The translations under genes and the position numbers were made by a program. 28,155 nt of DNA from a virus (lineage: Duplodnaviria; Heunggongvirae; Uroviricota; Caudoviricetes): the IMG/VR virus record IMGVR_UViG_2547132281_000009, positions 1 through 28,155 of that record; one strand, written 5' to 3'. Below the pieces are notes generated by a model. The model saw only the letters and a list, made by a program, of their open reading frames with translations, had not been told where the DNA came from and ran no database searches. Position 1 is the stretch's first letter. Each line of letters starts with the position of its first letter. Positions 1,601-19,139 of the stretch are shown piece after piece.

Positions 1601-1644
1601 GAGTGCTATCTCCGAATAGGGAATCGAACCTGCAAATCAGGCAA

Positions 1645-1665
1645 TAAAAAACCGCATTGATGCGG
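1645..1665 (-). terminator. Putative Rho-independent terminator (minus strand)
   Basis: 5-bp GC-rich stem ccgca/tgcgg with 4-nt loop followed on the minus strand by TTTTTT. Confidence 0.35.
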
Positions 1666-1722
1666 CGATGGTAGGTCTTGATATCTTGAGAAATGAACAG
1701 GCCTCATCGAGTGTGAGGCGGG

Positions 1723-2067
1723 TTAGTCCTTGCGTAGCTCGCTGATTCTTCTGTAAGTCTCTGGTGCTTTGTTCCCGTACGTCTTCATTTCAGACTTCAA
1801 CAGAGCAACGAGTGAATCCCATTCGTTGAGGATTCCTTTGAATGCCGGAACGCGCTTTGCAACCTTGTCGAATGAATCTCTGATTTCTGGAATCTGCTCA
1901 ACAAGTGCAACGCATCGCCGAAAGTCTGCTGCGTCATGGGGAGCGCCGAAGTGATGACCATAGATATTCTTTTTCAGGCCACATGCGATTGAGGCAAGAG
2001 TTGCGCTACTGATGCCGACATCGCCAGTTGATTGCCATTTCAAAACCTTCATAGCCAAATCTGACAT
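1723..2067 (-). CDS. Hypothetical early-left protein (114 aa)
   Basis: ATG with GGAGA Shine-Dalgarno; no recognisable motif. Confidence 0.5.
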   Translation of the reverse strand: MSDLAMKVLKWQSTGDVGISSATLASIACGLKKNIYGHHFGAPHDAADFRRCVALVEQIPEIRDSFDKVAKRVPAFKGILNEWDSLVALLKSEMKTYGNKAPETYRRISELRKD

Positions 2068-2155
2068 TTCTTGTCTCCATAAAACAAAACTCGCCGTAGC
2101 GAGCTCAGATAAAAGAAATCCCCGCGAGTGCGAGGATTGTTATGTAATATTTGGT

Positions 2156-2437
2156 TTAATCATCTATATGTTTTGTACAGAGAGGGCAAGTATCGTTTCC
2201 ACCGTACTCGTGATAATAATTTTGCACGGTATCAGTCATTTCTCGCACATTGCAGAATGGGGATTTGTCTTCATTAGACTTATAAACCTTCATGGAATAT
2301 TTGTATGCCGACTCTATATCTATACCTTCATCTACATAAACACCTTCGTGATGTCTGCATGGAGACAAGACACCGGATCTGCACAACATTGATAACGCCC
2401 AATCTTTTTGCTCAGACTCTAACTCATTGATACTCAT
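2156..2437 (-). CDS. Hypothetical Cys/His-rich protein (93 aa)
   Basis: ATG preceded by AAGGAG; contains C..C..HH and CPLC motifs suggesting metal binding. Confidence 0.5.
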   Translation of the reverse strand: MSINELESEQKDWALSMLCRSGVLSPCRHHEGVYVDEGIDIESAYKYSMKVYKSNEDKSPFCNVREMTDTVQNYYHEYGGNDTCPLCTKHIDD

Positions 2438-2628
2438 TTATAAACTCCTTGCAATGTATGTCGTTTCAGCTAAACGGTATCAGCAATGTTTATGTAAAGA
2501 AACAGTAAGATAATACTCAACCCGATGTTTGAGTACGGTCATCATCTGACACTACAGACTCTGGCATCGCTGTGAAGACGACGCGAAATTCAGCATTTTC
2601 ACAAGCGTTATCTTTTACAAAACCGATC

Positions 2629-3282
2629 TCACTCTCCTTTGATGCGAATGCCAGCGTCAGACATCATATGCAGATACTCACCTGCATCCTGAACCCATTG
2701 ACCTCCAACCCCGTAATAGCGATGCGTAATGATGTCGATAGTTACTAACGGGTCTTGTTCGATTAACTGCCGCAGAAACTCTTCCAGGTCACCAGTGCAG
2801 TGCTTGATAACAGGAGTCTTCCCAGGATGGCGAACAACAAGAAACTGGTTTCCGTCTTCACGGACTTCGTTGCTTTCCAGTTTAGCAATACGCTTACTCC
2901 CATCCGAGATAACACCTTCGTAATACTCACGCTGCTCGTTGAGTTTTGATTTTGCTGTTTCAAGCTCAACACGCAGTTTCCCTACTGTTAGCGCAATATC
3001 CTCGTTCTCCTGGTCGCGAGATTTGATGTATTGCTGGTTTCTTTCCCGTTCATCCAGCAGCGCCTGCACTACTTCAGGGTTGAAAGCTGCGATATAACGA
3101 GCGTTGTTCTCTGCGTTGTTCTGTCCATCAAAGCCGGTCCATTTGATAACGTCTTCACATCGTTTATCACCAGGTGTATGCACCGCATATGTACCAGTAC
3201 CAGACGAAATAAATGCGACCCATTCACCCTGTGTTGCCAGTTGCGCCGCTTCACGCAGTGCCTGATAGTCAATCTTGTTCAT
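2629..3282 (-). CDS. Ead/Ea22-like early protein (217 aa)
   Basis: Central coiled-coil region and C-terminal ITHRYYGVGGQWVQ-type motif typical of Ead/Ea22-family proteins of lambdoid early-left regions (from memory). Confidence 0.55.
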   Translation of the reverse strand: MNKIDYQALREAAQLATQGEWVAFISSGTGTYAVHTPGDKRCEDVIKWTGFDGQNNAENNARYIAAFNPEVVQALLDERERNQQYIKSRDQENEDIALTVGKLRVELETAKSKLNEQREYYEGVISDGSKRIAKLESNEVREDGNQFLVVRHPGKTPVIKHCTGDLEEFLRQLIEQDPLVTIDIITHRYYGVGGQWVQDAGEYLHMMSDAGIRIKGE

Positions 3283-3283
3283 G

Positions 3284-3604
3284 TCACATCACCCTGAATC
3301 CGTTGCATTTACGTAAGAAATCGCAGATATAGCCCTTCATTTTTTCATGCCAATCTCGATCATTCCCATTGCACCAACCATCAGGTGGAGTCCAGTTTTC
3401 TATCAGAGCAGCCATTTTCTTTGCTTTCGCCGGAGTAGCTGTTGCGGTATCGCAGTAATGACGAGTGTCAACCAACGCATCCATACCATCGATATCAAGT
3501 ACGCAAAACCATGTGTGATTCGGAATTCCTACAGGTGGTATTTGTTGCCCACGTCGACGTTTATCAATAAGATATACACTCACTGCTTGCCTCCTTTGCG
3601 CCAC
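3284..3604 (-). CDS. Hypothetical protein (106 aa from a GTG start; alternative ATG at 3484 gives 66 aa)
   Basis: Long ORF in the early-left operon; start codon uncertain. Confidence 0.4.
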
Positions 3605-3747
3605 ATCGCATTCAGATATTTGTTTTGATTCACTGAAGGAAAAGAATTTCTCTTAAGCAATTCCTCTCTCGATGGCATTGGCTTTACGCGTTGGCGAATA
3701 ATCATTTCTGCCGGAAGAATGCCTGGATTGTATGCAAGTCCTCTCAT
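3580..3747 (-). CDS. Hypothetical small protein (55 aa)
   Basis: ATG at 3747 with GAGGAA Shine-Dalgarno 7 nt upstream; follows the stop of the upstream gene. Confidence 0.35.
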
Positions 3748-3757
3748 GGTAAATTCC

Positions 3758-4054
3758 TCAGTCATTACTGATAGCGCCATAGCGTGAGCGGTAATTACGC
3801 AGGCGCGGGTCGATATATTCAGGGAAGTGGGTATATGTGGCTTTGCGGAATGGTCGGATTGATGTCTGGTAAATTCGCTCGCGTTCTTCTTTCTCTGCAA
3901 GCCATATACAGTGGCGAAATTCCTTTTCCTCTTTCGTTTCCTGCGGTAGCGACATTATCCGGTCGTAGTTTTTCCTGAATTTATCCAGCACCTCCGATAC
4001 GGAATTGCCGGAACAGCGGCGCGGGTCATCCGCACCATACTGAGGCGCTGGCAT
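3758..4054 (-). CDS. Hypothetical protein (98 aa)
   Basis: ATG at 4054 with strong AGGAGA Shine-Dalgarno. Confidence 0.5.
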
Positions 4055-4067
4055 GATTTTCTCCTGA

Positions 4068-4547
4068 TTAAATTGCGTGAATAGCGTGACGAGGGAAGGG
4101 GAGAGTTACTGGCTCCTCGTCTGGGTAGATAGGTTTGTTATGTTTGTGCCACTCGACATGACATGACTTGCAGAGCCACATCACATCGGTTGGTTTGCTG
4201 TAGTCGCAGTGGTGCGCCTGTGGTTTACATTCTGATCCGCAGCACTCACATTGTGGTGGTCGGATTAGCTTACCGTCGCGCAAAAAATTACCCACGATGA
4301 TGTGGGCTTTTCTTTTCCATGGGTTGCTCTGAATGAACCGCTTTTTGGCTGCGTTACACCGTTCTCTGCCGCGTTCCGATGATTGATATTCTCTCCTTGC
4401 TGATACTCGATGTGGCAATCCCGCGCGCTCTTTGTCGTATTCAGCCAGGCAAGCCCGGCAAGCGGCAGTTAATCCATCTCTGGATGCTCTTCTGATTTGA
4501 AAGTCCCTTTCTTCCTTCTGTTGATGGCATCTTGAGCAGATTTTCAT
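4068..4547 (-). CDS. HNH-family endonuclease-like protein (159 aa)
   Basis: Multiple CxxC pairs and a C-terminal HH...LC..CH motif typical of the HNH zinc-finger nuclease fold; good Shine-Dalgarno. Confidence 0.6.
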   Translation of the reverse strand: MKICSRCHQQKEERDFQIRRASRDGLTAACRACLAEYDKERAGLPHRVSARREYQSSERGRERCNAAKKRFIQSNPWKRKAHIIVGNFLRDGKLIRPPQCECCGSECKPQAHHCDYSKPTDVMWLCKSCHVEWHKHNKPIYPDEEPVTLPFPRHAIHAI

Positions 4548-4556
4548 ATTCAGCTC

Positions 4557-5030
4557 CTAGAACGGAATATCCGAATCGTCGAAGTTCATAGGTGGTTCGC
4601 TGTGATTCCCCTGCTGCTGAGGTTGCTGTCTTTGTTGCTGACCGTTATTTCGCTGAGGTGAAGACTGTTCATTGCCTCCTTGCTTGCCACCAAGCATTTG
4701 CATGGTTCCACCAACGCCCACGATGACTTCGGTAGTGAACCGATCCTGTCCGCTTTGATCCTGCCATTTTCTTGTCCGCAATTTGCCTTCAAGATAAACC
4801 TCAGAGCCTTTTCGCAGATATTCGCTGGCAATTTCTGCCAGTTTCCCGCTCATTACCACACGGTGCCACTCCGTCTGCTCCTTTTGCTCTCCAGTTTGCT
4901 TATCACGCCATTGTTCTGACGTAGCAACTGTAAGGTTTGCAAATGCCGTTCCTGATGGTGAATATCTGATTTCTGGATCATGCCCAAGGCGACCAATAAT
5001 GATCACCTTATTTACGCCTCTGCTTGCCAT
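4557..5030 (-). CDS. ssb: Single-stranded DNA-binding protein (SSB), phage-encoded
   Basis: N-terminal OB-fold sequence [23 protein letters not shown], Gly/Gln-rich linker and acidic C-terminal tail DDSDIPF are diagnostic of bacterial/phage SSB. Confidence 0.9.
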
Positions 5031-5738
5031 TTATGCCGCCTGTTTTAGCTCGTTAACTCTGATGTTCATTACCTGAACGCATTTAGCCTGCGCCTCCTCG
5101 TTGCCAGCCATTAATTGCCAGTCACGCTGATAACGCTCGATGAGTTTTTTCTTGTCAGTTTCTGTTGACGCATAATCGCTGAAGTCTTTCAGGATTTGTT
5201 CGCAGTCAACCGATGGAGATTTCTGGTTGGTATTTTCTGGTGATGGTTTGTTATCTGATGCTGGGATTGCCCATCCCGGCAGCGATGGAGGGAGCCAGTA
5301 AAATCCTGTTCCATCCTTCAGTTTTGCCCTGTGCCACCCCTGCTTTTTATCGAGAGATGTTTGTGCGAAACCTTCCTCAAGGTTATACAGATACCGACCG
5401 ATTCCCCACTGAACGGCAGCGCGCTTCATTGCACCGGAACGACCACCTTTGACGGCTTCTACCTGCGTGTTTTCAGCAGCATCCCATTTGGTTACCCATT
5501 CGGAATCAATCTTTATTGATATGCCGCATTCAACGCCGCCGTTGTTGGGAATATCGCGGTATTCATTGCGCCATCCTGCTTTGCCGCAAACATCGTCCAG
5601 GCGCTTCATGATTGCCCGGTTCGTGACATAAGCCAGCACCATAGCCCACACCTTGCCATCGCGTGTTTTACCGCTTTGCTGTATTCGCCATTCGATATCT
5701 TCAGGGCTGAATGGCTCATCGAATTTATTCAAATCCAT
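5031..5738 (-). CDS. Single-strand annealing recombinase, Rad52/Erf-like (235 aa)
   Basis: Directly upstream of ssb in the position of lambdoid recombination genes; sequence resembles Rad52/22-type phage recombinases (from memory, not searched). Confidence 0.55.
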   Translation of the reverse strand: MDLNKFDEPFSPEDIEWRIQQSGKTRDGKVWAMVLAYVTNRAIMKRLDDVCGKAGWRNEYRDIPNNGGVECGISIKIDSEWVTKWDAAENTQVEAVKGGRSGAMKRAAVQWGIGRYLYNLEEGFAQTSLDKKQGWHRAKLKDGTGFYWLPPSLPGWAIPASDNKPSPENTNQKSPSVDCEQILKDFSDYASTETDKKKLIERYQRDWQLMAGNEEAQAKCVQVMNIRVNELKQAA

Positions 5739-5837
5739 AATTCACCTCAGAATGGACACGACCCAAGGAAATAACGCTGATTTAATACTTCGACTCGGGA
5801 CAAATTAAGGCATACCCGCATTCCTTCGCGGTCGCCA

Positions 5838-5996
5838 TTATGGCGATACCAGAGAGCTTTCTGCGTGTACATGCGTCTCTGTAACTTGCTCTCCTTCACT
5901 GTGGTTGCAAGTGACATGAATATCTCCTTCGTTACCGATTAAATCTTTCATTTGACGAATGAATTCTTCGTCTGACCAGTTATCTGTAAAACTCAT
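5838..5996 (-). CDS. Small protein in Kil position (52 aa), translationally coupled to cIII-like gene
   Basis: ATG overlaps the TGA of the upstream gene (ATGA); positional analogue of lambda kil. Confidence 0.4.
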   Translation of the reverse strand: MSFTDNWSDEEFIRQMKDLIGNEGDIHVTCNHSEGEQVTETHVHAESSLVSP

Positions 5997-6163
5997 GGAC
6001 GGCCTTGTTGTTTCAAAATATCCCAAAGCTTTTCGAGCAAACTTTTCATTCTTGGTTGTTTAAAGTCCGCTCCGGTTAAAATATTCTTTCGTGAATGCTG
6101 TACCGATAAAATCGGGTTGAAAGGGCGAACCGATGCCGCCCCTGCAATAGCGAACTGTTGCAT
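5993..6163 (-). CDS. CIII-like protease inhibitor (56 aa)
   Basis: Internal ATG at 6163 with AAGGAG Shine-Dalgarno; MQQFAIAG...SLLEKLWDILKQQG resembles lambda CIII (MQYAIAGW...); position between N and the recombination genes. Confidence 0.55.
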   Translation of the reverse strand: MQQFAIAGAASVRPFNPILSVQHSRKNILTGADFKQPRMKSLLEKLWDILKQQGRP

Positions 6164-6226
6164 AGGATGCTCCTTCTGTTTGATTGCATAACGAAAACGC
6201 CTCGAATGAAGCGTTATTGGTATGCA

Positions 6227-6253
6227 TATAAAAAAGCCCTCACACTGGAGGGC
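6227..6253 (-). terminator. Rho-independent terminator (tL-like) between the N-proximal genes and the cIII-like gene
   Basis: Stem gccctc/gagggc with 6-nt loop followed on the minus strand by TTTTTT. Confidence 0.6.
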
Positions 6254-6381
6254 AAAGAAGATTTCCAACAATCAGAACAAGTCTGCTCCTGTTTAATTAC
6301 GAGCGACATTGCTCCGTGTATTCACTCGTTGGAATGAATACACAGTGCAGTGTTTATTCTGTTGTTTGTTCCAAAGTGAAT

Positions 6382-6624
6382 TTAACCAGCAATAAACTCT
6401 TCTGGTAATTTATCAACCAGTTGATGGCTTATTATCAGCCATTTGCCATCCTTCGTTTCGTATGCATATTTCTGGTCTTTTATCATCATGTGTTCGGCTA
6501 CTGCCTTAACTGCCTGTTCTGTGACATCTTCTTTTTTTCCTACCCACATTCCTTTTTCAGTGTTTAATGTTCCTTGAAAAATACGACCGCTTAATGGGCT
6601 TGCGCCCATGGTTTTAATTTTCAT
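6382..6624 (-). CDS. Hypothetical early protein (80 aa)
   Basis: ATG with AAGGTG Shine-Dalgarno; no recognisable motif. Confidence 0.5.
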   Translation of the reverse strand: MKIKTMGASPLSGRIFQGTLNTEKGMWVGKKEDVTEQAVKAVAEHMMIKDQKYAYETKDGKWLIISHQLVDKLPEEFIAG

Positions 6625-6651
6625 ATAGCACCTTAAAAATAAAGGCCACCA

Positions 6652-6903
6652 TCAGGCAGCCTTGTTGTAAATGTTGCAGGTATCAAGTAAGTAATTAGAT
6701 GGAGCGCCATAAATTATGAATTCATCGTTTGTCGGGTCCATCTCCATCTCTTGGCCTATTGCCATTCTTGCGTCAGTGTCATCAGCTGCGAAGCATAAAA
6801 CAGCCCACGCACCCATTGTTTTAAAAAGAACTGCAATTGGCTGTGGTTTTACTGAATTTGCGTTAGCGCGAAAATCATAAATCGCACTTTCATGAAATTC
6901 CAT
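6652..6903 (-). CDS. Hypothetical protein in the ral position (83 aa)
   Basis: ATG with GAGG Shine-Dalgarno, 3 nt after N stop; ends in NKAA like lambda Ral but otherwise unlike Ral. Confidence 0.5.
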   Translation of the reverse strand: MEFHESAIYDFRANANSVKPQPIAVLFKTMGAWAVLCFAADDTDARMAIGQEMEMDPTNDEFIIYGAPSNYLLDTCNIYNKAA

Positions 6904-6906
6904 ATA

Positions 6907-7239
6907 TCACCCCTCATACAGTGGTTTGCTGCCTAATTTCATTTTCTGGCGACCAACACAAGTCAACCCCATTTCACTACGTGGCTTGCTGTACCATGTG
7001 CGCTGATTCTTGCGCTCAATACGTTGCAGGTTGCTTTCAATCTGTTCGTGGTATTCAGCCAGCACTGTAAGGTCTATCGGATTCAGTGCGCTTTCTACTC
7101 GTGATTTCGGTTTGCGATTCAGCGAGAGAATAGGGCGGTTAACTGGTTTTGCGCTTACCCCAACCAACAGGGGATTTGCTGCTTTCCATTGAGCCTGTTT
7201 CTCTGCGCGACGTTCGCGGCGGCGTGTTTGTGCATCCAT
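6907..7239 (-). CDS. N: Antitermination protein N (lambda N-like, 110 aa)
   Basis: Translation begins MDAQTRRRERRAEKQAQWKAANPLLVGVSAKPVNRPILSLNRKPKSRVESALNPIDLTVLAEYH, matching lambda N including the arginine-rich motif; C-terminal ~25 aa differ. Confidence 0.9.
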   Translation of the reverse strand: MDAQTRRRERRAEKQAQWKAANPLLVGVSAKPVNRPILSLNRKPKSRVESALNPIDLTVLAEYHEQIESNLQRIERKNQRTWYSKPRSEMGLTCVGRQKMKLGSKPLYEG

Positions 7240-7482
7240 TTTATTCTCCTTTGAGCAACTTCATCGCTTCATCAATACGTGATTGTGTCCCTGCGTTTGG
7301 CTCCACTTCTTGAATTCGGCGAGCGTCCTCAAGGAGTTTCGCAATCATTTCTTTAAGCGCTTCGTTATTCATGGTCATTCTCCTGTCAGTTAGCTTTGAG
7401 TAACGCGCCGTGATGCTTATCTCCACGGTTGCTGTCTTGCAGCTGCATTTCGCGCTACTCAAAGCCTTCTGCTTTGAATGCT

Positions 7483-7513
7483 GCCCTTCTTCAGGGCTTA
7501 ATTTTTAAGAGCC
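7483..7513 (-). promoter_or_regulatory. nutL site (boxB hairpin GCCCTGAAGAAGGGC and boxA-like GCTCTTA)
   Basis: On the minus strand: ggctcttaaaaattaagccctgaagaagggc, the lambda nutL arrangement. Confidence 0.8.
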
Positions 7514-7553
7514 TCACCTTCAATGGTGGTTAGTGCGTCCTGCTGATGTGCTT

Positions 7554-7616
7554 AGTATCACCGCTAGTGGTATCTGTGTCAACACCGCCAGAGATAATTT
7601 ATCACCGCAGATGGTT
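7554..7616 (-). promoter_or_regulatory. pL promoter with OL1, OL2, OL3 operators
   Basis: Three 17-bp lambda-type operators (tatcaccgctagtggta 7556-7572, caacaccgccagagata 7580-7596, tatcaccgcagatggtt 7600-7616); minus-strand TTGACA (7577-7582), 17 bp, GATACT (7554-7559). Confidence 0.85.
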
Positions 7617-7770
7617 ATCTGTATGTTTTTTATATAGATTTATTTTTTTTGCAGGGGGGGCTTGGGAGGTGATCGAGAGATCTGAATTGCGATGTTTAGT
7701 GAGTTGTATCTATTAATTTTCAAATAAATACAATTGGTTATGTGTTATTGGTTGAAGGGGATCGTGAGGC

Positions 7771-7800
7771 AAAGAAAACCCGGCGCTGAGGCCGGGTTGT
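7771..7800 (-). terminator. Rho-independent terminator ending the cI operon (tImm-like)
   Basis: Stem cccggc/gccggg (7779-7796) with 6-nt loop, followed on the minus strand by TTTTCTTT; sequence matches the lambda terminator distal to rexB as I recall it. Confidence 0.75.
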
Positions 7801-7803
7801 ATA

Positions 7804-8676
7804 TTATTTAATTTCTTTTTCCGGTAAATACATTGTCATTTGAACAGGTTTCTTTCCATAGTGTTGAGCAACTCGACTTCTTAGCTCATGCATGGTGTCG
7901 CATGTTTTTGCGACCCCAATAACCTCCCAGCACCTTGATACAAGCTGCCTTACACCTAGGTTCTCGGTTAACTGTCTATGCCAGTGAACTCCTGCCGCAG
8001 GCTTGTTTTCTTTAAGATATTTAGCCACATCTTCGTCAAGAGTGTCATAAATTAACTCTATAACTAATTTCCCCCACCATTTGGGCCTTGATTGCAATGG
8101 GGTACTCCATCCTGTCAATCTACCAAATTCTTCCCATAACTCATCAGGAAATGTTTTTTCCCATGCTCTTAGTTCCTCAGCGATGAACGCCCTGAGTTTT
8201 ACTTGGAGAGCATCCTCTGCGCGCTCATACTGATACCCAGTAGCCTCATCAATTAGAGCATCTAACCCAGTCCTGGTTAAACCTGCTGTTAATACAGCAC
8301 ATTTAATTGCTATTTCTCGCTGTCTATCTGTCAATGGCGCGCCTTTGTATAGCGCCTGTACATAGCCGCGACAAATCAATTCAAATTGCTCAGTCTTAAG
8401 TCCTTGGCTCTTAAATTGGGTTCCTGGTATGGAAAACTCTATGAGTTCGGCCAGGACTAAGTCTTTGTCTATAAAGCCATTAAGTGAGCTAACGCCAATA
8501 AATTTAGCCAGGTCTCCTGACTCCGCATTGGCAATTGCTTTTACAGTTGCTCGCAAAGCTATAACACGATGTCCAGTGTCAAGCACATAGCAATCAATAC
8601 TTTCACCACCTAAGTCGATCTTCCCCTTCCATTTTGCGAATGGGGATGGTAATTGCTGTAAATCATCATGTTCCAT
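7804..8676 (-). CDS. Unknown-family protein (~290 aa) in the rexAB slot downstream of cI; candidate exclusion/defence gene
   Basis: Long ORF co-oriented with cI; start most likely the ATG at 8676 (AAGGG upstream, 32 nt after cI stop); the ORF-track start at 8772 would overlap the cI coding sequence by 65 bp; no transmembrane segment; no similarity to RexA/RexB. Confidence 0.6.
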   Translation of the reverse strand: MEHDDLQQLPSPFAKWKGKIDLGGESIDCYVLDTGHRVIALRATVKAIANAESGDLAKFIGVSSLNGFIDKDLVLAELIEFSIPGTQFKSQGLKTEQFELICRGYVQALYKGAPLTDRQREIAIKCAVLTAGLTRTGLDALIDEATGYQYERAEDALQVKLRAFIAEELRAWEKTFPDELWEEFGRLTGWSTPLQSRPKWWGKLVIELIYDTLDEDVAKYLKENKPAAGVHWHRQLTENLGVRQLVSRCWEVIGVAKTCDTMHELRSRVAQHYGKKPVQMTMYLPEKEIK

Positions 8677-8707
8677 TAATTGAATTACCCTTTTTTGCTG
8701 CGTTGAA

Positions 8708-9424
<717 letters not shown>

Positions 9425-9431
9425 TTAAATC

Positions 9432-9497
9432 TATCACCGCAAGGGATAAATATCTAACACCGTGCGTGTTGACTATTTTACCTCTAGCGGTGATAAT
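9432..9497. promoter_or_regulatory. OR3-OR2-OR1 operators with divergent pRM and pR promoters
   Basis: tatcaccgcaagggata (9432-9448), taacaccgtgcgtgttg (9455-9471), tacctctagcggtgata (9479-9495); pR TTGACT (9469-9474), 17 bp, GATAAT (9492-9497); cro Shine-Dalgarno AGGAGG. Confidence 0.9.
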
Positions 9498-9512
9498 GGT
9501 TGCATGTACTAA

Positions 9513-9722
<210 letters not shown>

Positions 9723-9729
9723 ATAACCA

Positions 9730-9761
9730 CGCTCTTACACATCCCAGCCCTGAAAAAGGGC
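9730..9761 (+). promoter_or_regulatory. nutR site (boxA CGCTCTTA, boxB GCCCTGAAAAAGGGC), followed by the tR1 region
   Basis: cgctcttacacatcccagccctgaaaaagggc immediately after the cro stop, as in lambda. Confidence 0.85.
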
Positions 9762-9840
9762 ATCAAATTAAACCACACCTATGGTGTATGCATTTATTTG
9801 CATACATTCAATCAATTGTTATCTAAGGAAATACTTACAT

Positions 9841-10134
9841 ATGGTTCGTGCAAACAAACGCAACGAGGCTCTACGAATCGAGAGTGCGTTGCTTAACAAA
9901 ATCGCAATGCTTGGAACTGAGAAGACAGCGGAAGCTGTGGGAGTTGATAAGTCGCAGATCAGCAGGTGGAAGAGGGACTGGATTCCAAAGTTCTCAATGC
10001 TGCTTGCTGTTCTTGAATGGGGTGTCGTTGACGACGACATGGCTCGATTGGCACGACAAGTTGCAGCGATTCTCACCAATAAAAAACGCCCGGCGGCAAC
10101 CGAGCGTTCTGAACAAATCCAGATGGAATTCTGA
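9841..10134 (+). CDS. cII: CII transcriptional activator (lambda CII-like, 97 aa)
   Basis: [73 protein letters not shown]... matches lambda CII; the ORF-track N-terminal extension from 9781 is upstream read-through. Confidence 0.95.
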
Positions 10135-10166
10135 GGTCATTACTGGATCAATCCACAGGAGTCATT

Positions 10167-10313
10167 ATGACAAAACAACTCAGTCCTTACCAGGACAAAA
10201 TTCACAAACACATACTACGTGATCGCTTCCTGTCCAGCTTCAAGCAGCCTGGTCGATTCCGGGCTGAGTTGGAAAAAGTGAAGCTGATGCAGAAGGAGAA
10301 AGGTCATGAGTAA
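10167..10313 (+). pseudogene. Truncated 48-codon ORF at the position of the replication-initiator (O-like) gene; probable remnant at a deletion junction
   Basis: Starts with the lambda O-type initiation context aggagtcattATGACAAA right after cII, then stops after 48 codons; gp10 follows 113 bp later. Confidence 0.3.
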
Positions 10314-10426
10314 CATATCTAATCTATCCAAACCGTATGCCTGTTGGTAGCGGTAACCAGTTGGCGAAGTGGAACGGTTGGAATTACTTCCACCGGAAGG
10401 AACCTTGCGATAACGGGAGCGAATAA

Positions 10427-11845
10427 ATGCCGATTCAGCAACTTCCGCTTATGAAAGGTGTCGGCAAAGACTTTCGAAACGCCGACTATATCGACTATCT
10501 GCCAGTGAATATGTTGGCTACACCCAAAGAAATCCTGAACAGCAGCGGATATCTTCGCTCATTCCCGGGCATTGCCAAACGTTCTGATGTGAACGGAGTA
10601 TCGCGAGGCGTCGAGTACAACATGGCGCAGAATGCTGTTTATCGCGTGTGTGGTGGCAAGCTGTACAAAGGAGAAAGTGAAGTCGGTGACGTCGCCGGAA
10701 GTGGTCGTGTATCAATGGCGCATGGTCGGACATCACAGGCGGTAGGTGTTAATGGTCAACTGGTCGAGTATCGCTATGATGGAACGGTTAAAACCGTCTC
10801 AAACTGGCCTACAGACAGCGGATTCACGCAGTATGAGTTAGGTTCTGTTCGTGACATTACGCGCTTACGCGGGCGTTATGCGTGGTCAAAAGACGGCACT
10901 GATTCATGGTTTATCACTGACCTTGAAGACGAATCGCATCCTGACAGATACAGTGCACAATATCGTGCCGAGTCTCAGCCTGACGGTATTATCGGCATCG
11001 GAACATGGCGAGACTTCATCGTCTGCTTTGGTTCATCGACGATTGAATATTTCTCCCTGACTGGTGCAACCACAGTTGGTGCTGCTTTGTATGTCGCACA
11101 GCCATCGCTGATGGTGCAAAAAGGCATCGCCGGGACTTACTGCAAAACGCCGTTTGCTGATTCCTATGCGTTTATCAGCAATCCGGCAACGGGTGCGCCG
11201 TCTGTATACATTATCGGCTCCGGTCAGGTGTCACCAATCGCCAGCGCGAGCATTGAGAAAATTCTCCGCTCCTACACTGCTGATGAACTGGCTGATGGTG
11301 TGATGGAGTCTCTGCGATTTGATGCGCATGAGCTGCTGATTATCCACCTTCCGCGCCATGTTCTCGTGTACGACGCATCTTCAAGCGCCAATGGTCCGCA
11401 ATGGTGTGTGTTGAAAACTGGCTTGTATGACGATGTGTACCGCGCTATCGACTTCATTTACGAAGGCAATCAGATAACGTGCGGCGATAAGCTGGAATCG
11501 GTTACCGGCAAATTGCAGTTCGATATCAGCAGCCAGTACGACAAGCAACAGGAACACCTGCTGTTTACTCCACTGTTCAAAGCGGATAACGCCAGAGTTT
11601 TCGACCTTGAGGTTGAATCGTCAACTGGCGTTGCGCAGTATGCTGACCGCCTTTTTCTCTCTGCAACCACTGACGGCATCAATTACGGGCGTGAGCAGAT
11701 GATTGAGCAGAATGAACCGTTCGTTTACGACAAACGCGTTTTGTGGAAGCGAGTAGGGCGCATCAGGAAAAATGTCGGCTTCAAATTGCGCGTTATCACG
11801 AAGTCACCTGTCACTCTGTCTGGCTGCCAGATAAGGATTGAGTAA
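10427..11845 (+). CDS. P22 gp10-like tail accessory (head-completion/tail hub) protein, 472 aa
   Basis: [48 protein letters not shown]... matches P22 gp10 over its length and size (from memory). Confidence 0.85.
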
Positions 11846-12693
11846 TGGCGGATTCGAATCTCAATGTGCCGGTAATCATCCAGGCTACGCGGCTCGACAC
11901 ATCAGTCCTTCCACGCAATATCTTCTCGCAGTCATATCTGCTGTACGTTATCGCACAGGGTACTGATGTTGGTAACGTGGCGAACAAGGCCAACGAGGCC
12001 GGACAGGGCGCTTATGATGCACAGGTCAGAAACGATGAGCAGGATGTGATTCTCGCTGACCATGAGCAGCGAATTTCTGCTGCGGAAGCAACGCTTGTTA
12101 ATCATGAGGAGCGAATCAGCCAGGCAGAATCAACTCTTCAGGAACATGAAACACGAATAGCTCAGAATGAAAGCGATATTGCGTCGCTTGATACCAGAGT
12201 TCAGTCGCTGGAATCGCAGGTTTCAGACCATGAAACGCGCATCGATGCTCTGAAGTATGCCACTACTCGCAAGAAGTCAGAGGTTGTTTACTCTGGCGTA
12301 TCTGTAACCATCCCGACAGCGCCGACCAACCTTGTTAGCCTACTGAAAACGCTCACGCCGTCATCCGGCACGTTGGCACCATTCTTCGACACCGTTAACA
12401 ACAAGATGGTTGTGTTCAACGAGAACAAAACCTTGTTCTTCAAGCTGTCGATCGTCGGGACGTGGCCCAGCGGAACCGCAAACAGGTCAATGCAGCTAAC
12501 ATTTTCCGGTTCTGCTCCTGACACACTGGTAAGCAGTCGCAACTCGGCGACAACAACCGACAACATCCTGTTAGCTACGTTCTTCAGCGTGGATAAAGAC
12601 GGCTTTCTTGCCACAAATGGCAGTACGTTAACCATTCAGTCAAATGGGGCGGCGTTTACTGCCACAACCATCAAAATCATTGCGGAGCAGTGA
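11845..12693 (+). CDS. P22 gp26-like tail needle protein with extended C-terminal domain (282 aa)
   Basis: Follows gp10; central heptad repeats ([64 protein letters not shown]) typical of the trimeric coiled-coil needle; ~50 aa longer than P22 gp26. Confidence 0.75.
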
Positions 12694-13148
12694 TGATTCA
12701 GTTCAAACCAACGCGAAACATCGACCTGATCGAAGCGGTAGGAAATCACCCTGACATTATCGCCGGGAGCAACAACGGTGATGGATACGACTACAAACCT
12801 GATTGCCGTTACTTTGAGGTGAACGTGCACGGGCAGTTCGGCGGCATTGTTTACTATCAGGAGATTCAGCCGCTGACATTCGATTGCCACGCCATGTACC
12901 TGCCAGAGATTCGCGGCTTCAGCAAGGAAATCGGGCTGGCGTTCTGGCGATACATTCTGACTAACACCACCGTTCAGTGCGTCACATCGTTCGCCGCACG
13001 CAAATTCCGCCACGGGCAGATTTACTGCGCAATGATTGGCCTTAAGCGTGTAGGAACCATCAAGAAATACTTTAAAGGCGTGGATGACGTGACTTTTTAC
13101 AGCGCCACACGCGAAGAACTAATCGACTTCCTGAATCACGGGAGATAG
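12690..13148 (+). CDS. P22 gp14-like head assembly/ejection-associated protein (152 aa)
   Basis: Assigned by conserved position in the P22 order 10-26-14-7-20-16; overlaps upstream stop (ATGA). Confidence 0.6.
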
Positions 13149-13150
13149 CC

Positions 13151-13846
13151 ATGTTATATGCATTTAAGCTGGGCAGAAAACTGCGCGGCGAGGAACCTTA
13201 TTGCCCTGAAAAGGGTGGGAAAGGTGGCAGTTCTGATAAAAGCGCAAAGTATGCAGCAGAAGCTCAGAAGTATGCCGCAGACCTGCAAAATCAGCAGTTC
13301 AACACCATCATGAACAACCTGAAGCCGTTTACTCCTCTGGCTGATAAGTATGTCGGCAGCCTCGAGAACTTATCGTCTCTGGAAGGGCAAGGTCAGGCAC
13401 TTAACCAGTATTACAACTCTCAGCAGTATAAAGACCTTGCAGGTCAGGCTCGCTATCAGAGTCTGGCGGCAGCGGAAGCAACAGGTGGGTTAGGTTCCAC
13501 CGCAACCAGTAATCAGTTAGCAACAATCGCACCAACGCTTGGTCAGCAATGGCTATCTGGACAAATGAACAACTACCAGAATCTGGCAAATATCGGTCTT
13601 GGCGCTCTTCAGGGGCAGGCAAACGCCGGGCAAACATATGCCAACAACATGAGTCAGATTTCACAGCAAAGCGCGGCTCTTGCAGCGGCAAACGCCAACC
13701 GACCATCAGCAATGCAATCTGCTATTGGCGGAGGTGCGTCTGGTGCTATTGCTGGGGCCGGACTTGCGAAATTAATTGGCTCATCAACTCCGTGGGGTGC
13801 TGGTATCGGTGCTGGTATCGGTCTGCTTGGTTCACTGCTTTATTAA
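13151..13846 (+). CDS. P22 gp7-like ejection (internal virion) protein (231 aa)
   Basis: Position in the P22 order and Gly/Ala/Gln-rich low-complexity composition typical of ejection proteins. Confidence 0.65.
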   Translation: MLYAFKLGRKLRGEEPYCPEKGGKGGSSDKSAKYAAEAQKYAADLQNQQFNTIMNNLKPFTPLADKYVGSLENLSSLEGQGQALNQYYNSQQYKDLAGQARYQSLAAAEATGGLGSTATSNQLATIAPTLGQQWLSGQMNNYQNLANIGLGALQGQANAGQTYANNMSQISQQSAALAAANANRPSAMQSAIGGGASGAIAGAGLAKLIGSSTPWGAGIGAGIGLLGSLLY

Positions 13847-13856
13847 GGGGTAATCA

Positions 13857-15206
13857 ATGGCTACGTGGCAACAGGGTATTAATTCTGGTGGTTTTCTGGC
13901 TGGCATTGGTGCGCAAAACGAGAATGCGCCAAAGGCAAAAGACATTAATGCAACGCTTGGCCTGATCCGCGAAAACAATGAACTGGCTCGCTCAGGTGCA
14001 AATAACGTTGGCCTGACCGCGTTACGTGGTCTGGCTGGAGTTGCTGATATTTACAATCAGGAACAGCAACAGAAAGCTATTAGTGCGTTCAATAAGGTTC
14101 ACGCTGATGCATGGGCTTCTGGTGATCCATCGGGACTATTTAAGTTTGCCCAGGAAAATCCAGCGTTTGTTGCACAGGCACAACAGGCGTTTTCTGGTCT
14201 TAATGATCAGCAACGCAACGATATGGGCGATTTAGCCATGAGGGCTAACGTCGCTCTTTCTCAGGGACCGGAAGCCTACAGTAAATTCATTACTGACAAC
14301 AAGGACAGGTTAAATCGCGTGGGGGCGAATGCTGACTGGATGATTCAGACAGGTATCCAGAATCCAGAGCAGCTATCACACATGCTGACTACGATGTCTC
14401 TCGGTGCGCTTGGGCCAGAAAAGGCGTTTGCTGTTCAGGACAAGATGGTTGGTCGCCAGCAGGAGCAGCAAAGAATTAACGAAACCATTCGCAATAATGA
14501 CATGACGAATGCGAGGGCTATTAGGGGGCAGGATCTTTCCTATAAGGCTCAAATGGCAAGACTGAATCACGACAAGTATGTGTTTAAGCAGTCACAGGCG
14601 GCCCTTGAAAGAGCAGGACAACTTCAGGATATGGATGTTTTGTCTCTTAACTCACAGATAGCAGCGACGGGAATTGATCCTCTAACCGGTAAAGCTGCAA
14701 CGTCAGCCAGAATGTCTCAGGCTAAGAGATGGCTTGATGGCAACAATAATTACAACAATGCGTTGATTACTGGTGAGCGAGGGATAGAGAAAATAGATTC
14801 TTTGCTTGGTAAGAAGGAGCTTGAAGGTATCGGTCGCTTCGAAGGAAGAAATATAGATGGCTTCACAAGTGCTGAAGGGCTTGCAAACCGTAATGCGATA
14901 GAAGAATTAAAGTCGGGTGCGTTTGTCCAGAACGTGCAGACTATGCGAGGTATGGGTAGCCTCTCCAATGCTGAAGGCCAAAAACTGGAAAACCTGATCG
15001 CGAAACTCGATATAACACAGCCTGAAGAGGTCGTCAGAAAACAGTTATCTGAAATACGATCTCAATATTCTGTATTTCAAAAGGTTGCAGCAAGGGAGGC
15101 TGAATCAATGGGATACAGTTCATCAGGTTATGACACATATGTTAGTGAGCGAAAATCAGGAAGCGACAGCAATAAGTCCGGTTTCTCGTCTTTATGGGGT
15201 GATTAA
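13857..15206 (+). CDS. P22 gp20-like ejection protein (449 aa)
   Basis: Position in the P22 order; size and composition. Confidence 0.65.
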
Positions 15207-17374
15207 TGGCTAAAGCATGGAAAGATGTTATCGCTTCTCCACAGTATCAGGCGTTAACTGAAGAACAGAAAGCACAGGCTCAAGCGCAATATTTTGATGA
15301 GGTTGTTGCCCCTAAGGCTGGTGACAAATGGGCTGAAGCAAGAGATCAGTTTTATGCAGCATACCCTCCGCCTCAGCAGCAGAAAGAAGAACCATCATTG
15401 ATGCAACAAGCTGGCGATTGGCTCACTGGTGGTCAAAGTGCAGGGCAAATTGCAGAGCAGGCTGGTCGTGGTCTGGTAAACATACCATTTGACGTATTGC
15501 AGGGTGGCGCAAGTCTGATTAATGCAATCAGCCAGGGGCTTGGTGGCCCCAAGGTTTTGGACGATGTCTATCGTCCAGTAGATCGACCAACAGACCCTTA
15601 TGCGCAAGCTGGTGAAACAATTGGTGGGTATCTCCTGCCAATTGGCACAGCGGCAAAAGCTGCTGGAGCGCCAGCAAAGCTCGCTGGAGATATCGGTTCC
15701 GCAGGAAACATGATTGCAGGTTCTCTTGCTGATGCTGCAAATCAGGAGGGCGACTTTGCACAAAATGCTGCCATTAACGGTGGTATCAATATTGGTGCTC
15801 AGGGGATACTTTCTGGGGCTGGAAGGATCTTAACCTCTAAATCACCTCAAGTTCTTGGTGGCGGGGCAATAAATTCCGCTGCTGATGTTTCGAAAATGGC
15901 AAAGTCTGGTACAGGAAGAGAGATTATTGCCAGACAGTCAGCTAATGTGTCAGACGAAATAGCAAAAGCAGCAGATACTGCTGGAATAGATATCAACGCA
16001 TTAACTCCTGGCATGAGATCAGGTAGTCGTGGTCTTGCTCAGGCGGAGGGGATTCTGGCGTCAAAGCCCGGAATTACACAGGATGCACACACCAAAGCAT
16101 TCAGTGAAATAGAGTCGAAATTTAACTCAGCATTGGATGAGTTTGGGGCTGAAGCAGGAACTGCATCAGAAAAAAGTGCAGCCATAAAACAAAGGGTTTT
16201 GGCAAGTATTGATAAAATGAAAAATTCAGAAAAGGCCGCATGGGATAGCGTCCGCTCCACGATGCCTGACGCAAAGGCCAGAATGTCAAACCTGAACGCT
16301 ACAATTCAGGGTGATATTTTGGCTGGCATGCCGCTAACTCCTGAGATGAAACAATTCGCATCTGCTTATGCTAAAACTGGTAAAAAAGGAATCACGTTTG
16401 ATGCCATGAAGGCATGGCGAAGTAAACTTGCTGACGCAGAGCAGAAGTATATAAGGTCTGGTGAGGCAAATACGGCAAGGCGCATGGCTGAGCTTCGTGA
16501 TGCAGCAACGGAAGATATGCGCATAATGGCTCAAAATGGCGGTTTTCTTGATGACTGGCAAAAAGCTAATGATCTGTCAAAGGCAAGATTTACAGCACAA
16601 GAACAGGCTGAAGCAGCGTTTGGTAGAGACCTTGCAACTGATCAGTTGGTAACTAATGGATCTAAGGCGTTACAGGGTTCAGCAAAAAGTGGAACAGGTC
16701 AGTTCCATAAAATAATAAGCGCCCTACCTGAGTCGGAACGCGCGCCAGCAATTGCATCAATATTACAAGATGCAATGTCGCAAGGGGTACGCGGAGGTAA
16801 GTCTGAAGAGGCTGGAATTAAGCATATCGCGACTATTCTTACCCCACAAAACGTGAAGGCAATTAGTCGATATTCTCCAGAACTTGGCAGGATTACAAGT
16901 TCATACGGAGAACTTGCACGAGCAGCAACAAAGCCACTTCGATATGTTGAACAGACAGGGCGATCTATGCCAGCCATTAGCACTCTTGAGAATGGCCTTC
17001 ATCCAGTTTTAGAGAGCGCATTGTCTGGCGCTTTTAGAACTACTGGCACTATCGCAGGGTTCTCTGGAGGAGGCGTTATTGGAGCAATAGCGGGTGGCGC
17101 TGCAGGTGGGGCAATTGATGCAATGGCAAAAGGAGCGATAGCGAAATTATCCGCAACTAGAAGCGGTCGTTACGCTATTGAAAAGGCTGTTCAAGAGGCA
17201 ACAAAGGCAGTTAAGGTTGGGGCAAGTGATGGTGCATTAGCGGCGGCGGAACGCAGATTTATGGCAAATAAGGCCGCCGTAAAAGCAATACGCGAGGCAC
17301 TAGGAAACGAAGAGTTCCAGCGTTTAGCAAGAGCTGGAATTGTGGCATCGCTAAGCGGAATGGCACAGGAGTAA
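15206..17374 (+). CDS. P22 gp16-like ejection protein (722 aa)
   Basis: Position in the P22 order; last gene of the rightward structural block; longer than P22 gp16 as I recall it. Confidence 0.65.
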
Positions 17375-17767
17375 TTAGTCATCCATGGATGGATTGAGCT
17401 TATCTCGTGTTGATGTGGCAATTTTCCCAACATTTTTCAACCAAGATTTTAAGAAGGATATGTCGTCCTTAATATCATGAATATCCTCATTCTTTATACG
17501 ATCAACCTTATCCTCTAAGCTCTCTATAGAACGCTCAATGCTAGACAGAGAGATTTTTAAGTCCCCTTGCTCACGTTCCAGTGAGGATTTGAGAGCACAA
17601 TATTCGTTTTCTAGAATTCCTATTTTTTTTGTTAGAGAGTGCATTCGATACTCATACACCAAACCAGAAACGACTAATGCAGCCAACAGAAACCATTCAA
17701 GCACACCAACCTCCTTAGTTTTGTGCAGGATACCAGATGGTTTGGAGTGAGATAAAGGTTTGTCCAC
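17375..17767 (-). CDS. Small membrane-anchored coiled-coil protein (130 aa), candidate superinfection-exclusion or accessory component
   Basis: ORF fills the entire gap between the gp16 stop and the PIN gene; one hydrophobic helix (WFLLAALVVSGLVY) followed by heptad-like charged repeats; GTG start with weak Shine-Dalgarno, so the start is uncertain. Confidence 0.45.
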   Translation of the reverse strand: MDKPLSHSKPSGILHKTKEVGVLEWFLLAALVVSGLVYEYRMHSLTKKIGILENEYCALKSSLEREQGDLKISLSSIERSIESLEDKVDRIKNEDIHDIKDDISFLKSWLKNVGKIATSTRDKLNPSMDD

Positions 17768-17787
17768 TTTTGGCTATAGCTTTATGT

Positions 17788-17815
17788 ATCCGTGACGGAT
17801 GTAATTATCACGGAT
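17788..17815. promoter_or_regulatory. Inverted-repeat element ATCCGTGACGGAT ... TCACGGAT between the PIN gene and the downstream membrane-protein gene
   Basis: 13-bp palindrome at 17788-17800 and a third half-site copy at 17808-17815; no U-tract, so not a canonical terminator; possible operator. Confidence 0.3.
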
Positions 17816-17831
17816 GCATAAAAATTATATT

Positions 17832-18380
17832 TTAGTGTAATCTCTGATCGTCTGAATCGTGTAAGAACTCCATGAGACTTTGAACCGGAATTGGTTCTAT
17901 TGATGATAATGTGAACACAGGAATATTGAGACTTTTGCAACGCTCAAACACTCCCTTATCATGAGTCCATACCTCGTCAGCATTAATTGCTCTTGCAATT
18001 GCTATTATTTGTCTGTCAAACTTAATTTTGTTTGCTGTACCTTCTGTGCTAATTTTCCTTAATTCTTTTAATGTTGGTATCGATGCGCATTCAATAGCAG
18101 CCAACTCATCAAATGATACAGTTTCGAAGCACGATAACGATTTGATAACATTCAGTTTTTCTTGTTGGTAATCTTTATGGATTCCAACTAAAAACTCCGC
18201 CAATACAGGAGTTGGAACGATGATTGTCCCGTTCTTGTTATCTATTCGATCAACAAGAGCTTCTGCTCTTCTTTTGGCATCTGGAATCTCAGAACCAAGT
18301 ATAGGGTCAGATAATCTATAATCGTGTTCTATATCTGATAGTAGGTATACCAGAATATTGGTATCTAAAATTACTCGCAA
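17832..18380 (-). CDS. PIN-domain nuclease-like protein (182 aa)
   Basis: N-terminal MRVILDTNILVYLL with the conserved Asp in the first strand, further acidic residues and a C-terminal WTHD motif, consistent with a PIN fold; TTG start with AGGAAG Shine-Dalgarno, overlapping the upstream stop by 10 nt. Confidence 0.7.
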   Translation of the reverse strand: MRVILDTNILVYLLSDIEHDYRLSDPILGSEIPDAKRRAEALVDRIDNKNGTIIVPTPVLAEFLVGIHKDYQQEKLNVIKSLSCFETVSFDELAAIECASIPTLKELRKISTEGTANKIKFDRQIIAIARAINADEVWTHDKGVFERCKSLNIPVFTLSSIEPIPVQSLMEFLHDSDDQRLH

Positions 18381-19090
18381 TTTATCTTCCTCAGAGTCCT
18401 AAGGATTGAATCAACATCGCGTTCCTCGGACCACTGATCTCCAGGAACTTGCTTGATAGCATTAATAGCATCCTTGAGTGATGATTTTTTGAGCAATACA
18501 AATGAAGTTATTTTTAGTTTCTTTAGCTCCCATTTGTTGTTCTTTTTTTCCCAGCACCCATCTCCTTTAACCCTAATATATTTGAATAGATGGGACCCAA
18601 GAGCTGCCGCCAAATCAGGGGTTGCCTCGCACTTGAATGTTTCACCGTTGGCTCCCTCAATACGCACAGGTATTGAGTTGTCTTTTCCGCCAACACTGTA
18701 TAGCCTTCCTTGAACTTCTGACGTTTTTGTTATGAGTAAAGGGATTGGCTCCTTTTTTACTCGCGGGAATGCGATAATGGTTGAGTGGTTTCGTCCGAGT
18801 AGTTTCGCTGAAAAACCATCATGCTCCAGTAAATTAACAATTTTTTGATACGCGGGTGATTTCTCTTTGGCTGAGAGAGAGGCCCTTGCTATGACAGCGT
18901 TATAACAAATATCATTATCGACCCATGCATTTAAGTCAGCCGATCCTTCACTTACACAGTCGAAGTGAACAGAATCTGCAGAACCGTATAGATCTACGAG
19001 AGCAGACATATACTTGACCAACTTAGCCATTGACAGCTGGCCAGGGGTGGTTCCGTCAAGTTTTAATGTGAGTCCATTGCTTTTTTTCAT
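18371..19090 (-). CDS. Unknown-family protein (239 aa), upstream partner of the PIN-domain gene
   Basis: ATG at 19090; stop overlaps the PIN start (operon); AT-rich; no recognisable motif, no P-loop, no transmembrane segment. Confidence 0.65.
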   Translation of the reverse strand: MKKSNGLTLKLDGTTPGQLSMAKLVKYMSALVDLYGSADSVHFDCVSEGSADLNAWVDNDICYNAVIARASLSAKEKSPAYQKIVNLLEHDGFSAKLLGRNHSTIIAFPRVKKEPIPLLITKTSEVQGRLYSVGGKDNSIPVRIEGANGETFKCEATPDLAAALGSHLFKYIRVKGDGCWEKKNNKWELKKLKITSFVLLKKSSLKDAINAIKQVPGDQWSEERDVDSILRTLRKINCE

Positions 19091-19139
19091 TTGTCATCAC
19101 GCGAGCCAATATCGATATGGTTAACTATACGTCATAAGC

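Follow-up and report, generated by a model that had tools for sequence, protein, structure and literature searches.

The window, positions 1 to 28,155 of IMG/VR virus record IMGVR_UViG_2547132281_000009 (Caudoviricetes) and analysed over its whole length of 28,155 nucleotides (nt), carries what is very probably a defective P22-like (Lederbergvirus-type) prophage of ca. 25.8 kb, integrated at argW in an Escherichia coli chromosome. The region of interest is the stretch 10135–10426, where early genes of the prophage meet gp10, and in particular a breakpoint in phage gene 4 that lies within it.

Limits and gene content of the prophage

The ends of the prophage are marked by an exact 15-nt direct repeat, TGGTGTCCCCTGCAG, at 1312–1326 and 27073–27087 (0 expected by chance). 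The second attachment (att) copy overlaps a tRNA-Arg(CCT) gene recognized by ARAGORN, and the chromosomal neighbours, a sucrose-permease-like gene on one side and yfdC on the other, identify the argW site. Virion genes follow the canonical P22 order, 10-26-14-7-20-16 ... 9, with Pfam matches in the right arm to Phage_stabilise, Phage_tail_NK, DUF2824, P22_gp7, Inj_translocase and Head_binding. By contrast to what is retained, the list of open reading frames (ORFs), Pfam and PHROG revealed no replication, nin, Q, lysis, terminase, portal, scaffold or coat ORF between the two att copies. An earlier note, made from the letters of the window alone, had reported these modules missing, and the search indicated that they are not elsewhere in the element. 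Integrase and att repeats at a tRNA gene, canonical virion genes and loss of the essential lytic module are together what characterizes a defective P22-like prophage, the product of which would be unable to replicate, lyse, or build or fill heads. A phage satellite (phage-inducible chromosomal island or P4-like) was also considered and rejected: the window has no replication initiator, primase, terS or cpm-like ORF, its replication gene being represented by 21 nt only.

The junction between the early region and gene 4

The end of cII at 10134 is followed by a 48-codon ORF (10167–10313), a 113-bp gap (10314–10426) and the start of gp10 at 10427, a layout that the earlier note had described correctly in every feature. 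It had been interpreted as an internal deletion joining the cII region directly to gp10, a reading under which the 48-codon ORF would be a product of the deletion, such as a truncated O gene. The deletion of the replication-to-coat modules is real, but its position is another one. The 48-codon ORF is a full-length match to DUF2740 (PF10872, profile positions 1–43 of 43, E = 9e-29); hundreds of intact lambdoid prophages in complete E. coli genomes have it annotated between the 'lambda phage CII family protein' and the replication gene, and P22 has its own copy, orf48, overlapping the start of gene 18. Conservation as an intact gene in relatives was what the earlier note had itself named as speaking against its view of this ORF. 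The lambda O-type initiation context that it had noticed is genuine, since homology to lambda covers the cII–O intergenic region and ends about 10 nt into the ORF (window ca. 10177); this endpoint is a natural mosaic boundary common to intact phages and no deletion scar.

Alignment to intact relatives, which the earlier note had proposed as a way to find the breakpoint and any microhomology, did so: BLAST and alignments placed the breakpoint 12–13 nt downstream of the 48-codon ORF, at a TA dinucleotide in 10325–10326. The left parent, an intact prophage of E. coli JNE131328 (locus L002), matches the window without a difference through 10326 and then diverges, and the right parent, represented by P22-like phages such as IME10 and by intact prophages (L003 and L008), is identical to the window from 10325. 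With a stroke marking the break, the sequences at the junction are ATGAGTAACATATCTAATCTA/GCCGAAGCC in the left parent and ...AAGTCCGGTTA/TCCAAACCG in the right parent, and ...AATCTATCCAAACCG is found in the window. The crossover is located within the shared TA, and the extended match around it is imperfect (7/10). Region 10135–10426 is made of three pieces, an intact DUF2740/orf48 gene, the first 21 nt of a replication gene that in its normal setting overlaps the stop of orf48, and the last 102 nt of P22-type gene 4, the latter two probably joined by illegitimate recombination at the shared TA. Codon 7 of the replication gene is followed, in a different reading frame, by the final 34 codons (33 amino acids and stop) of gene 4, generating a 14-codon chimeric ORF at 10306–10350; in the equivalent locus L078, tblastn detected the remaining gp4 residues 134–166.

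In the intact prophage of E. coli 2012C-4431 the distance from one flank to the other is 17,372 bp, compared with ca. 16 kb in P22. On the scale of this relative, about 17.4 kb would have been deleted, comprising replication, nin, Q/23, lysis, terminase, portal, scaffold, coat and most of gene 4. The junction was found 100% identical over 256 nt in assemblies GCA_000166615.2 and GCA_002458215.1, one of which may be the source of the window itself, and the agreement of two assemblies makes an assembly artefact unlikely. No match to the exact junction was found among GTDB species representatives, and no insertion sequence (IS) or att-like sequence at 10300–10350. Both parents identified, an overlap of TA between them and a junction free of mobile-element and att sequences are the marks of a microhomology-mediated illegitimate deletion.

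The same dinucleotide of gene 4 is an endpoint of many deletions

The TA at this position of P22-type gene 4 is a nucleotide-precise deletion hotspot: at least 12 distinct deletions in prophages of E. coli have one of their ends there. Its context is CCGGT-TA-TCCAAACCG, with the TA in the Tyr codon of a YPNRMP motif. The first two analogous deleted argW prophages, retrieved from complete E. coli genomes with a cI-to-gp26 query, were those of strains 2020CK-00188 and ZY22049. In 2020CK-00188 the endpoints are unrelated to the hotspot, the middle of the replication gene being joined to a point 123 nt into gp10, and in ZY22049 a nin gene resembling Sf6 gene 46 is joined to gene 4 at the same TATCC. 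A pattern search of metagenomes for a non-native base before TATCC revealed two more partners: a P gene of lambda type and another replication gene, which was found again in IMG/VR.

As a neutral test, 301 nt of intact P22-type gene 4 (199 nt to the left and 102 nt to the right of the site) were used as a query against 5,426 complete E. coli genomes. Matches were obtained in 247 records, 219 full length and 28 partial, and all 12 of the partial records sampled, drawn from two spread listings, started at query positions 196–200, that is, at the TATCC site within 5 nt. The junctions, with at least 11 different partners among them, are compiled in Table 1. In 10/10 resolved leftward junctions the TA is within a microhomology of 2–6 nt. 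Locus L121 showed the opposite polarity: coat and gene 4 are kept through ...CCGGTTA and joined via TA to the 3' end of gp14, corresponding to a 2.8-kb rightward deletion. Partners are located 0.4–17 kb away on either side, each with TA plus 0–4 further matching bases, and the gene-4 end was never resected. No IS, att or repeat sequence was found at the hotspot junctions. Of 80 gp10 loci drawn from IMG/VR without positional bias, 79 carried an intact gp4 (31 Sf6-type, 27 P22-type and 21 CUS-3-type), and the sole truncated gp4 breaks at residue 134, which is the same site. Use of the same phosphodiester region in independent events, as expected of a site-specific target, is thus observed in at least 12 junction types at one TA, with negative controls.

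Table 1. Junctions at the TA of P22-type gene 4
Junction	Partner	Shared bases
Window	Replication gene, nt 21	TA
ZY22049	Sf6 gene 46-like	TATCCA
L020	Lambda-type P	TA
L021 / L022 / L078	Another replication gene	TATCC
L104	Holin, codon 9 (Q region/holin)	GTTA
L105	cII ATG region	TAT
L106 (ETEC lineage)	Gene 3	TTA
L107	Gene 3, nt 418	TA
L108	terL	TA + flanking imperfect homology
L109 (prophage at another att site)	abc2 region	TAT
L110	Unresolved	

ETEC, enterotoxigenic E. coli.

Two controls were run. The last 301 nt of Sf6-type gene 4 yielded 3 partial matches in 430 records, versus 28/247 for the P22-type (Fisher p = 3e-10), and the 301 nt directly to the left of the first P22-type query gave 219/219 full-length matches and 0 truncated ones. 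Coincidence, or an artefact of assembly or annotation, could be invoked for the window and ZY22049 alone, whose agreement would be expected by chance at roughly 0.2–1%; set against the 12/12 sampled truncations within 5 nt, against both controls and against the independent agreement of short- and long-read assemblies, isolates and metagenomes, this explanation is extremely improbable. The right arms of truncated prophages bear single-nucleotide polymorphism (SNP) variants of intact phages (AGC/AGT, AAC/AAT and an GGCAGTGGAAACC allele also present in the intact locus L014), a diversity that argues for several independent origins. No junctions were found in IMG/VR at the homologous position of the Salmonella P22 allele, a low-power test. 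The possibility that TATCC is a mosaic boundary between head-module types was discarded, given that sequence differences among the three gp4 types continue up to the ribosome-binding site of gp10.

Several loci showed additional peculiarities. In 2020CK-00188 (L001, ca. 18970–19250) the junction adjoins tandem GCCGCACATGAA-like repeats and a C-rich/G-rich inverted motif, which may be origin iterons in the truncated replication gene. ZY22049 carries a second deletion (L005, 16800–16860) that fuses codon 5 of cro to a point just upstream of a DnaB-like helicase gene, and has removed cro, cII, orf48 and the replication initiator. In E. coli 3PT (L109, 2400–3100) the hotspot-truncated gp4 belongs to a heavily eroded prophage elsewhere on the chromosome, beside dacD/sbmC, in which abc2 is joined to the gp4 remnant; after this come no more than 123 nt of gp10 and then a fragment of cI. 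An intact P22-type gp4–gp10 was found in two RefSeq records with the label 'DH5alpha' (NZ_CP026085.1, 1466776–1467375, and NZ_CM135829.1, 4534577–4535176); to our knowledge this is not expected in a K-12 derivative such as DH5alpha, and the records may reflect a mislabelled strain or a lysogenised stock.

Candidate causes of the fixed endpoint

The recurrence of one breakpoint leads us to infer that a site-specific break is its cause. Such a break or cut would occur at CCGGT^TA^TCC, possibly leaving a 2-nt TA overhang; one end would be kept intact while the other would be degraded processively over 0.4–17 kb, in the manner of RecBCD, and then rejoined at a microhomology containing TA. Among the products, leftward deletions would predominate in genomes, with replication, Q and lysis lost and cI/immunity kept, and it is plausible that deletions removing lytic genes yet keeping cI are favoured. 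We tentatively propose that gene 4 may be the target of an unrecognised sequence-specific cutting activity, a nuclease or recombinase of the host, a plasmid or a rival phage, and that mis-repair of the cut repeatedly disarms P22-like prophages.

A number of observations weigh against, or qualify, this account of the deletion and its hotspot. No enzyme, IS end, att-like site or CRISPR (clustered regularly interspaced short palindromic repeats) spacer could be tied to the site, and the partner sites, rather than resembling a target, share just TA and variable short matches. The hairpin CGGTT-ATCCA-AACCG that can be drawn at the site has a 5-bp stem and is not thermodynamically unusual (z = –0.4 versus shuffled sequence). 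At least 6 of the 28 partial records come from one porcine ETEC lineage, so that independent events number about a dozen and not 28, and part of the partner diversity could stem from serial deletions at a still-active half-site instead of fresh events. The size of the deletion in the window is that of a relative, not of its true parent. Finally, a NUMOD4/HNH homing-endonuclease gene beside gp10 is probably not the cutter: it is located between gp10 and gp26 in the ETEC lineage (L106, 4543–5076), the only one of the loci studied to have it there, and a 50%-identical homologue in phage HZ41 (L133, 2230–2775) coexists with an unchanged gene-4 site. Further HNH/NUMOD4 genes are present in the nin regions of these prophages.

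Other candidates were compared with the site. E. coli gene 3 contains a P22-pac-like sequence, and the gene-4 site is unlike it, so it does not qualify as a pseudo-pac site. No invertase (hix/gix) half-site, dif/Xer site, integron GTT, RP4, R388 or F nic site, gyrase consensus, Chi or Type III site (CAGAG + 26 nt) known to us fits the position of the crossover or its uniqueness. The hotspot motif, CCGGTTATCCAAACCG (window 10320–10340), has no other copy in the window within 3 mismatches. It contains the 9-mer TTATCCAAA, which is found once in K-12 oriC (L136, 343–351), where we take it to be the R3 DnaA box, and it is located 6 nt downstream of an AAG; neither the 9-mer, the hairpin nor the AAG could be linked to the breakpoint.

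These elements enter two alternative explanations. A replication fork that stalls or switches template at a small hairpin or a protein-bound site, with no nuclease involved, would agree with the location of the TA at the stem–loop boundary of CGGTT-ATCCA-AACCG, with the TTATCCAAA that begins the motif and its counterpart in oriC, and with the constant presence of microhomology. However, the weak hairpin, no better than shuffled sequence, was discarded as a cause, be it as hairpin or as cruciform; jumps of 0.4–17 kb in either direction far exceed typical slippage, and we know of no fork barrier made of a single weak DnaA box. Replication-based switching is thus unlikely. Alternatively, the deletions could be scars of self-targeting by type I-E CRISPR-Cas, in which Cas3 nicks within the R-loop and degrades DNA one way. 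An AAG protospacer-adjacent motif 6 nt upstream of the TA and the combination of one fixed and one variable end, as is known for Cas3 deletions, are in line with it, but no spacer-length match to the 301-nt region was found in the 5,426 complete E. coli genomes, every truncated-gp4 record contains a single matching place, and the deletion in L121 runs in the opposite direction. Self-targeting is therefore largely refuted and, in our judgement, highly improbable.

A different account of the constant endpoint is that one old truncated right arm, starting with the remnant of gp4 and gp10, was spread by homologous recombination, and that serial leftward deletions anchored at the retained right half-site provided the various partners. 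Every leftward product does keep an identical right half-site, TATCCAAACCGTATGCC, and prophages with multiple sequential deletions exist. Against this, the SNP diversity of the right arms equals that of intact phages, including the GGCAGTGGAAACC allele of L014, and L121 demonstrates a rightward deletion in which the left half was kept. A single ancestral arm is on these grounds not very probable; moreover, it is a variant of the hotspot model and not an alternative to it. A site-specific break in gene 4 remains our preferred explanation.

Decay rather than retention of the element

The earlier note had suggested that immunity, recombination, ejection-protein and tailspike genes were retained selectively instead of being the leftovers of random decay. 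This did not hold when the genes were inspected in the window and its relatives. The ant gene is interrupted by a 2.44-kb IS66-family element (ca. 20486–22927), with tnpA/B/C at 20557–22890 and 23-nt terminal inverted repeats at 20485–20507 and 22906–22928. Using the IS-truncated Ant fragment as a lineage marker in a protein look-up, a sibling assembly, ERR119526 (Logan; L019), was found to share the split ant. In this sibling, a further deletion of 9.8 kb with CA microhomology (L019 2230–2380, corresponding to window ca. 2687–12487) has removed most of the early-left arm, immunity, the gene-4 junction itself, gp10 and most of gp26. Other prophages with the hotspot breakpoint are eroded further, with gp10 lost (CH468, 3PT) or gp26 truncated (ETEC). 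The gp10 protein of the window is identical to that of very many prophages (among more than 2,500 index blocks, the 10 loci listed were all intact), and its intactness can be explained by a recent deletion, selection not being required.

For retention or domestication, whereby the host would keep immunity, recombination, ejection-protein and tailspike genes as useful, it can be argued that the right-arm genes from gp10 to gp16, like the tailspike gene, have their full length, that comparable remnants extending from immunity and gp10 to tailspike exist in other strains, and that leftward deletions keeping cI and removing lytic genes were probably favoured. The broken ant, the erosion just described in the sibling, CH468, 3PT and ETEC, and the recency that accounts for an intact gp10 all point in the other direction. 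In addition, once gp4, portal and capsid are gone, the retained proteins have no assembly partner known from P22 biology, and the shared endpoint is nucleotide-precise whatever the reading frame, something that selection on the product cannot yield. We consider retention very unlikely. A domesticated phage-derived element, be it a tailocin, a gene transfer agent or a defence remnant, was likewise discarded, as the gene set varies and erodes, ant is disrupted, and gp4, portal and capsid are absent. The element in the window is an ordinary intermediate of decay, in which the IS66 insertion in ant came later.

Other features of the element

The annotation of the whole prophage is given in Table 2. 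A P63C-domain ORF of 322 amino acids (aa) is located directly downstream of cI, in the position of lambda rexAB, and shares 65 nt with the end of the cI ORF; another P22-like prophage (L007) has an equally long P63C-domain ORF in its immI region. Between gp16 and mnt, in the position of sieA, a pair of overlapping genes on the minus strand (17832–19090) encodes a PIN-domain protein (182 aa, 17832–18380) and a 239-aa partner (18371–19090, phrog_19868), a candidate toxin–antitoxin or defence module.

Table 2. Annotated features of the argW prophage in the window
Feature	Position	Strand	Basis
attL core, 15-nt direct repeat of argW 3' end	1312–1326	+	Exact repeat
Early-left arm, whole	1400–7239	–	PHROG matches; annotation of relatives
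Excisionase, torI-like (early-left arm)	1400–1600	–	PHROG; relatives
ea genes, endonuclease, ssb (early-left arm)	within 1400–7239	–	PHROG; relatives
abc2 (early-left arm)	3758–4054	–	PHROG; relatives
erf (early-left arm)	5031–5738	–	PHROG; relatives
cIII (early-left arm)	5993–6271	–	PHROG; relatives
N-like antiterminator (early-left arm)	6907–7239	–	PHROG; relatives
P63C-domain accessory gene downstream of cI	7804–8772	–	PF10546; phrog_2384
Lambda-type cI repressor	8708–9421	–	phrog_4; relatives annotated LexA-family / S24
cro	9522–9722	+	phrog_35
cII, 97 aa	9841–10134	+	phrog_191, full length; ca. 98% identical to lambda over region
Intact DUF2740 gene (P22 orf48 homologue), 48 codons	10167–10313	+	PF10872
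First 21 nt (7 codons) of gene-18-type replication gene	10306–10326	+	Identity to E. coli JNE131328 (L002)
Deletion junction TA, common to both parents (recurrent gene-4 hotspot)	10325–10326	.	Parent alignments
Last 102 nt (33 codons and stop) of P22-type gene 4	10325–10426	+	Alignment to IME10 and intact prophage gp4
gp10	10427–11845	+	PF11134, full length
gp10, gp26 (Sf6-type knob), gp14, gp7, gp20, gp16, all full length	10427–17374	+	Pfam; lengths equal intact relatives
immI-like region: unknown ORF, PIN-domain ORF and partner, mnt, arc-like genes	17375–20121	.	Pfam, PHROG; genes called in L017
mnt (immI-like region)	19140–19394		Pfam/PHROG
ant, two parts: N-terminal 20185–20502, C-terminal 22965–23558	20185–23558	+	P22_AR_N / P22_AR_C; IS66 tnpA/B/C domains
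Tailspike, 667 aa, P22 head-binding domain	23659–25662	+	PF09008
IntS-type tyrosine integrase	25754–26947	–	Pfam integrase domains; intS in relatives
tRNA-Arg(CCT) argW containing attR core 27073–27087	27073–27147	–	ARAGORN; repeat

Significance and comparison with known systems

The element belongs to the well-known cryptic P22-like prophages at argW, and the breakpoint that recurs in gene 4 is a robust regularity. No published description of this hotspot was found in the titles and abstracts of the literature searched. If a defined break drives it, the inactivation of prophages in E. coli would not be random erosion only but would also follow a specific and repeatable path, one that could be reproduced in the laboratory, could mark a past conflict between phage and host or between phages, and could be traced to an enzyme. 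A true cutting activity would represent a route of prophage disarmament with a diagnostic scar in ca. 11% of the genomes carrying this type of gene 4. For annotation, a 102-nt pseudogene of the kind 'gp4, missing N-terminus' directly before gp10 marks this class of deletion.

Deletion hotspots anchored by an enzyme are known at the nick sites of M13 gene II and pC194 Rep and at gyrase sites. The gene-4 site resembles them by pattern only, in that one invariant endpoint is combined with many partners in both directions; unlike them, it matched no Rep or relaxase nick motif, gyrase consensus or enzyme. Short-homology illegitimate recombination and alternative end-joining (A-EJ) in E. coli, exemplified by the formation of lambda bio / Spi- phages and by RecBCD-dependent A-EJ, share with the hotspot deletions the 2–6 nt of microhomology, the absence of IS or att sequences and the kilobase size of the deletions. 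In classical events, however, endpoints are dispersed or show modest hotspots, whereas the hotspot deletions, at least 12 events, have one end at the same dinucleotide every time, and this end is never resected.

With the intact phages P22, Sf6, IME10 and HZ41 (Lederbergvirus), the window has in common the order cII/c1 - orf48 - gene 18 on the left and 4-10-26-14-7-20-16-immI-ant-9 on the right, and it differs from them by the loss of ca. 17.4 kb, from codon 7 of the replication gene to codon 134 of gene 4, and by the IS66 element in ant. The classic case among cryptic relatives is KplE1 / CPS-53 of E. coli K-12, a remnant of ca. 10 kb located at argW next to yfdC. Both elements occupy the argW site, are flanked by an IntS integrase / TorI excisionase module and are remnants of P22/HK620/Sf6-like phages, KplE1 being non-inducible and the element in the window predicted to be so. 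KplE1 has retained other genes, whereas in the window the early-left arm is complete, an immunity region of lambda type and the genes from gp10 to tailspike are kept, and the junction is mapped to the base.

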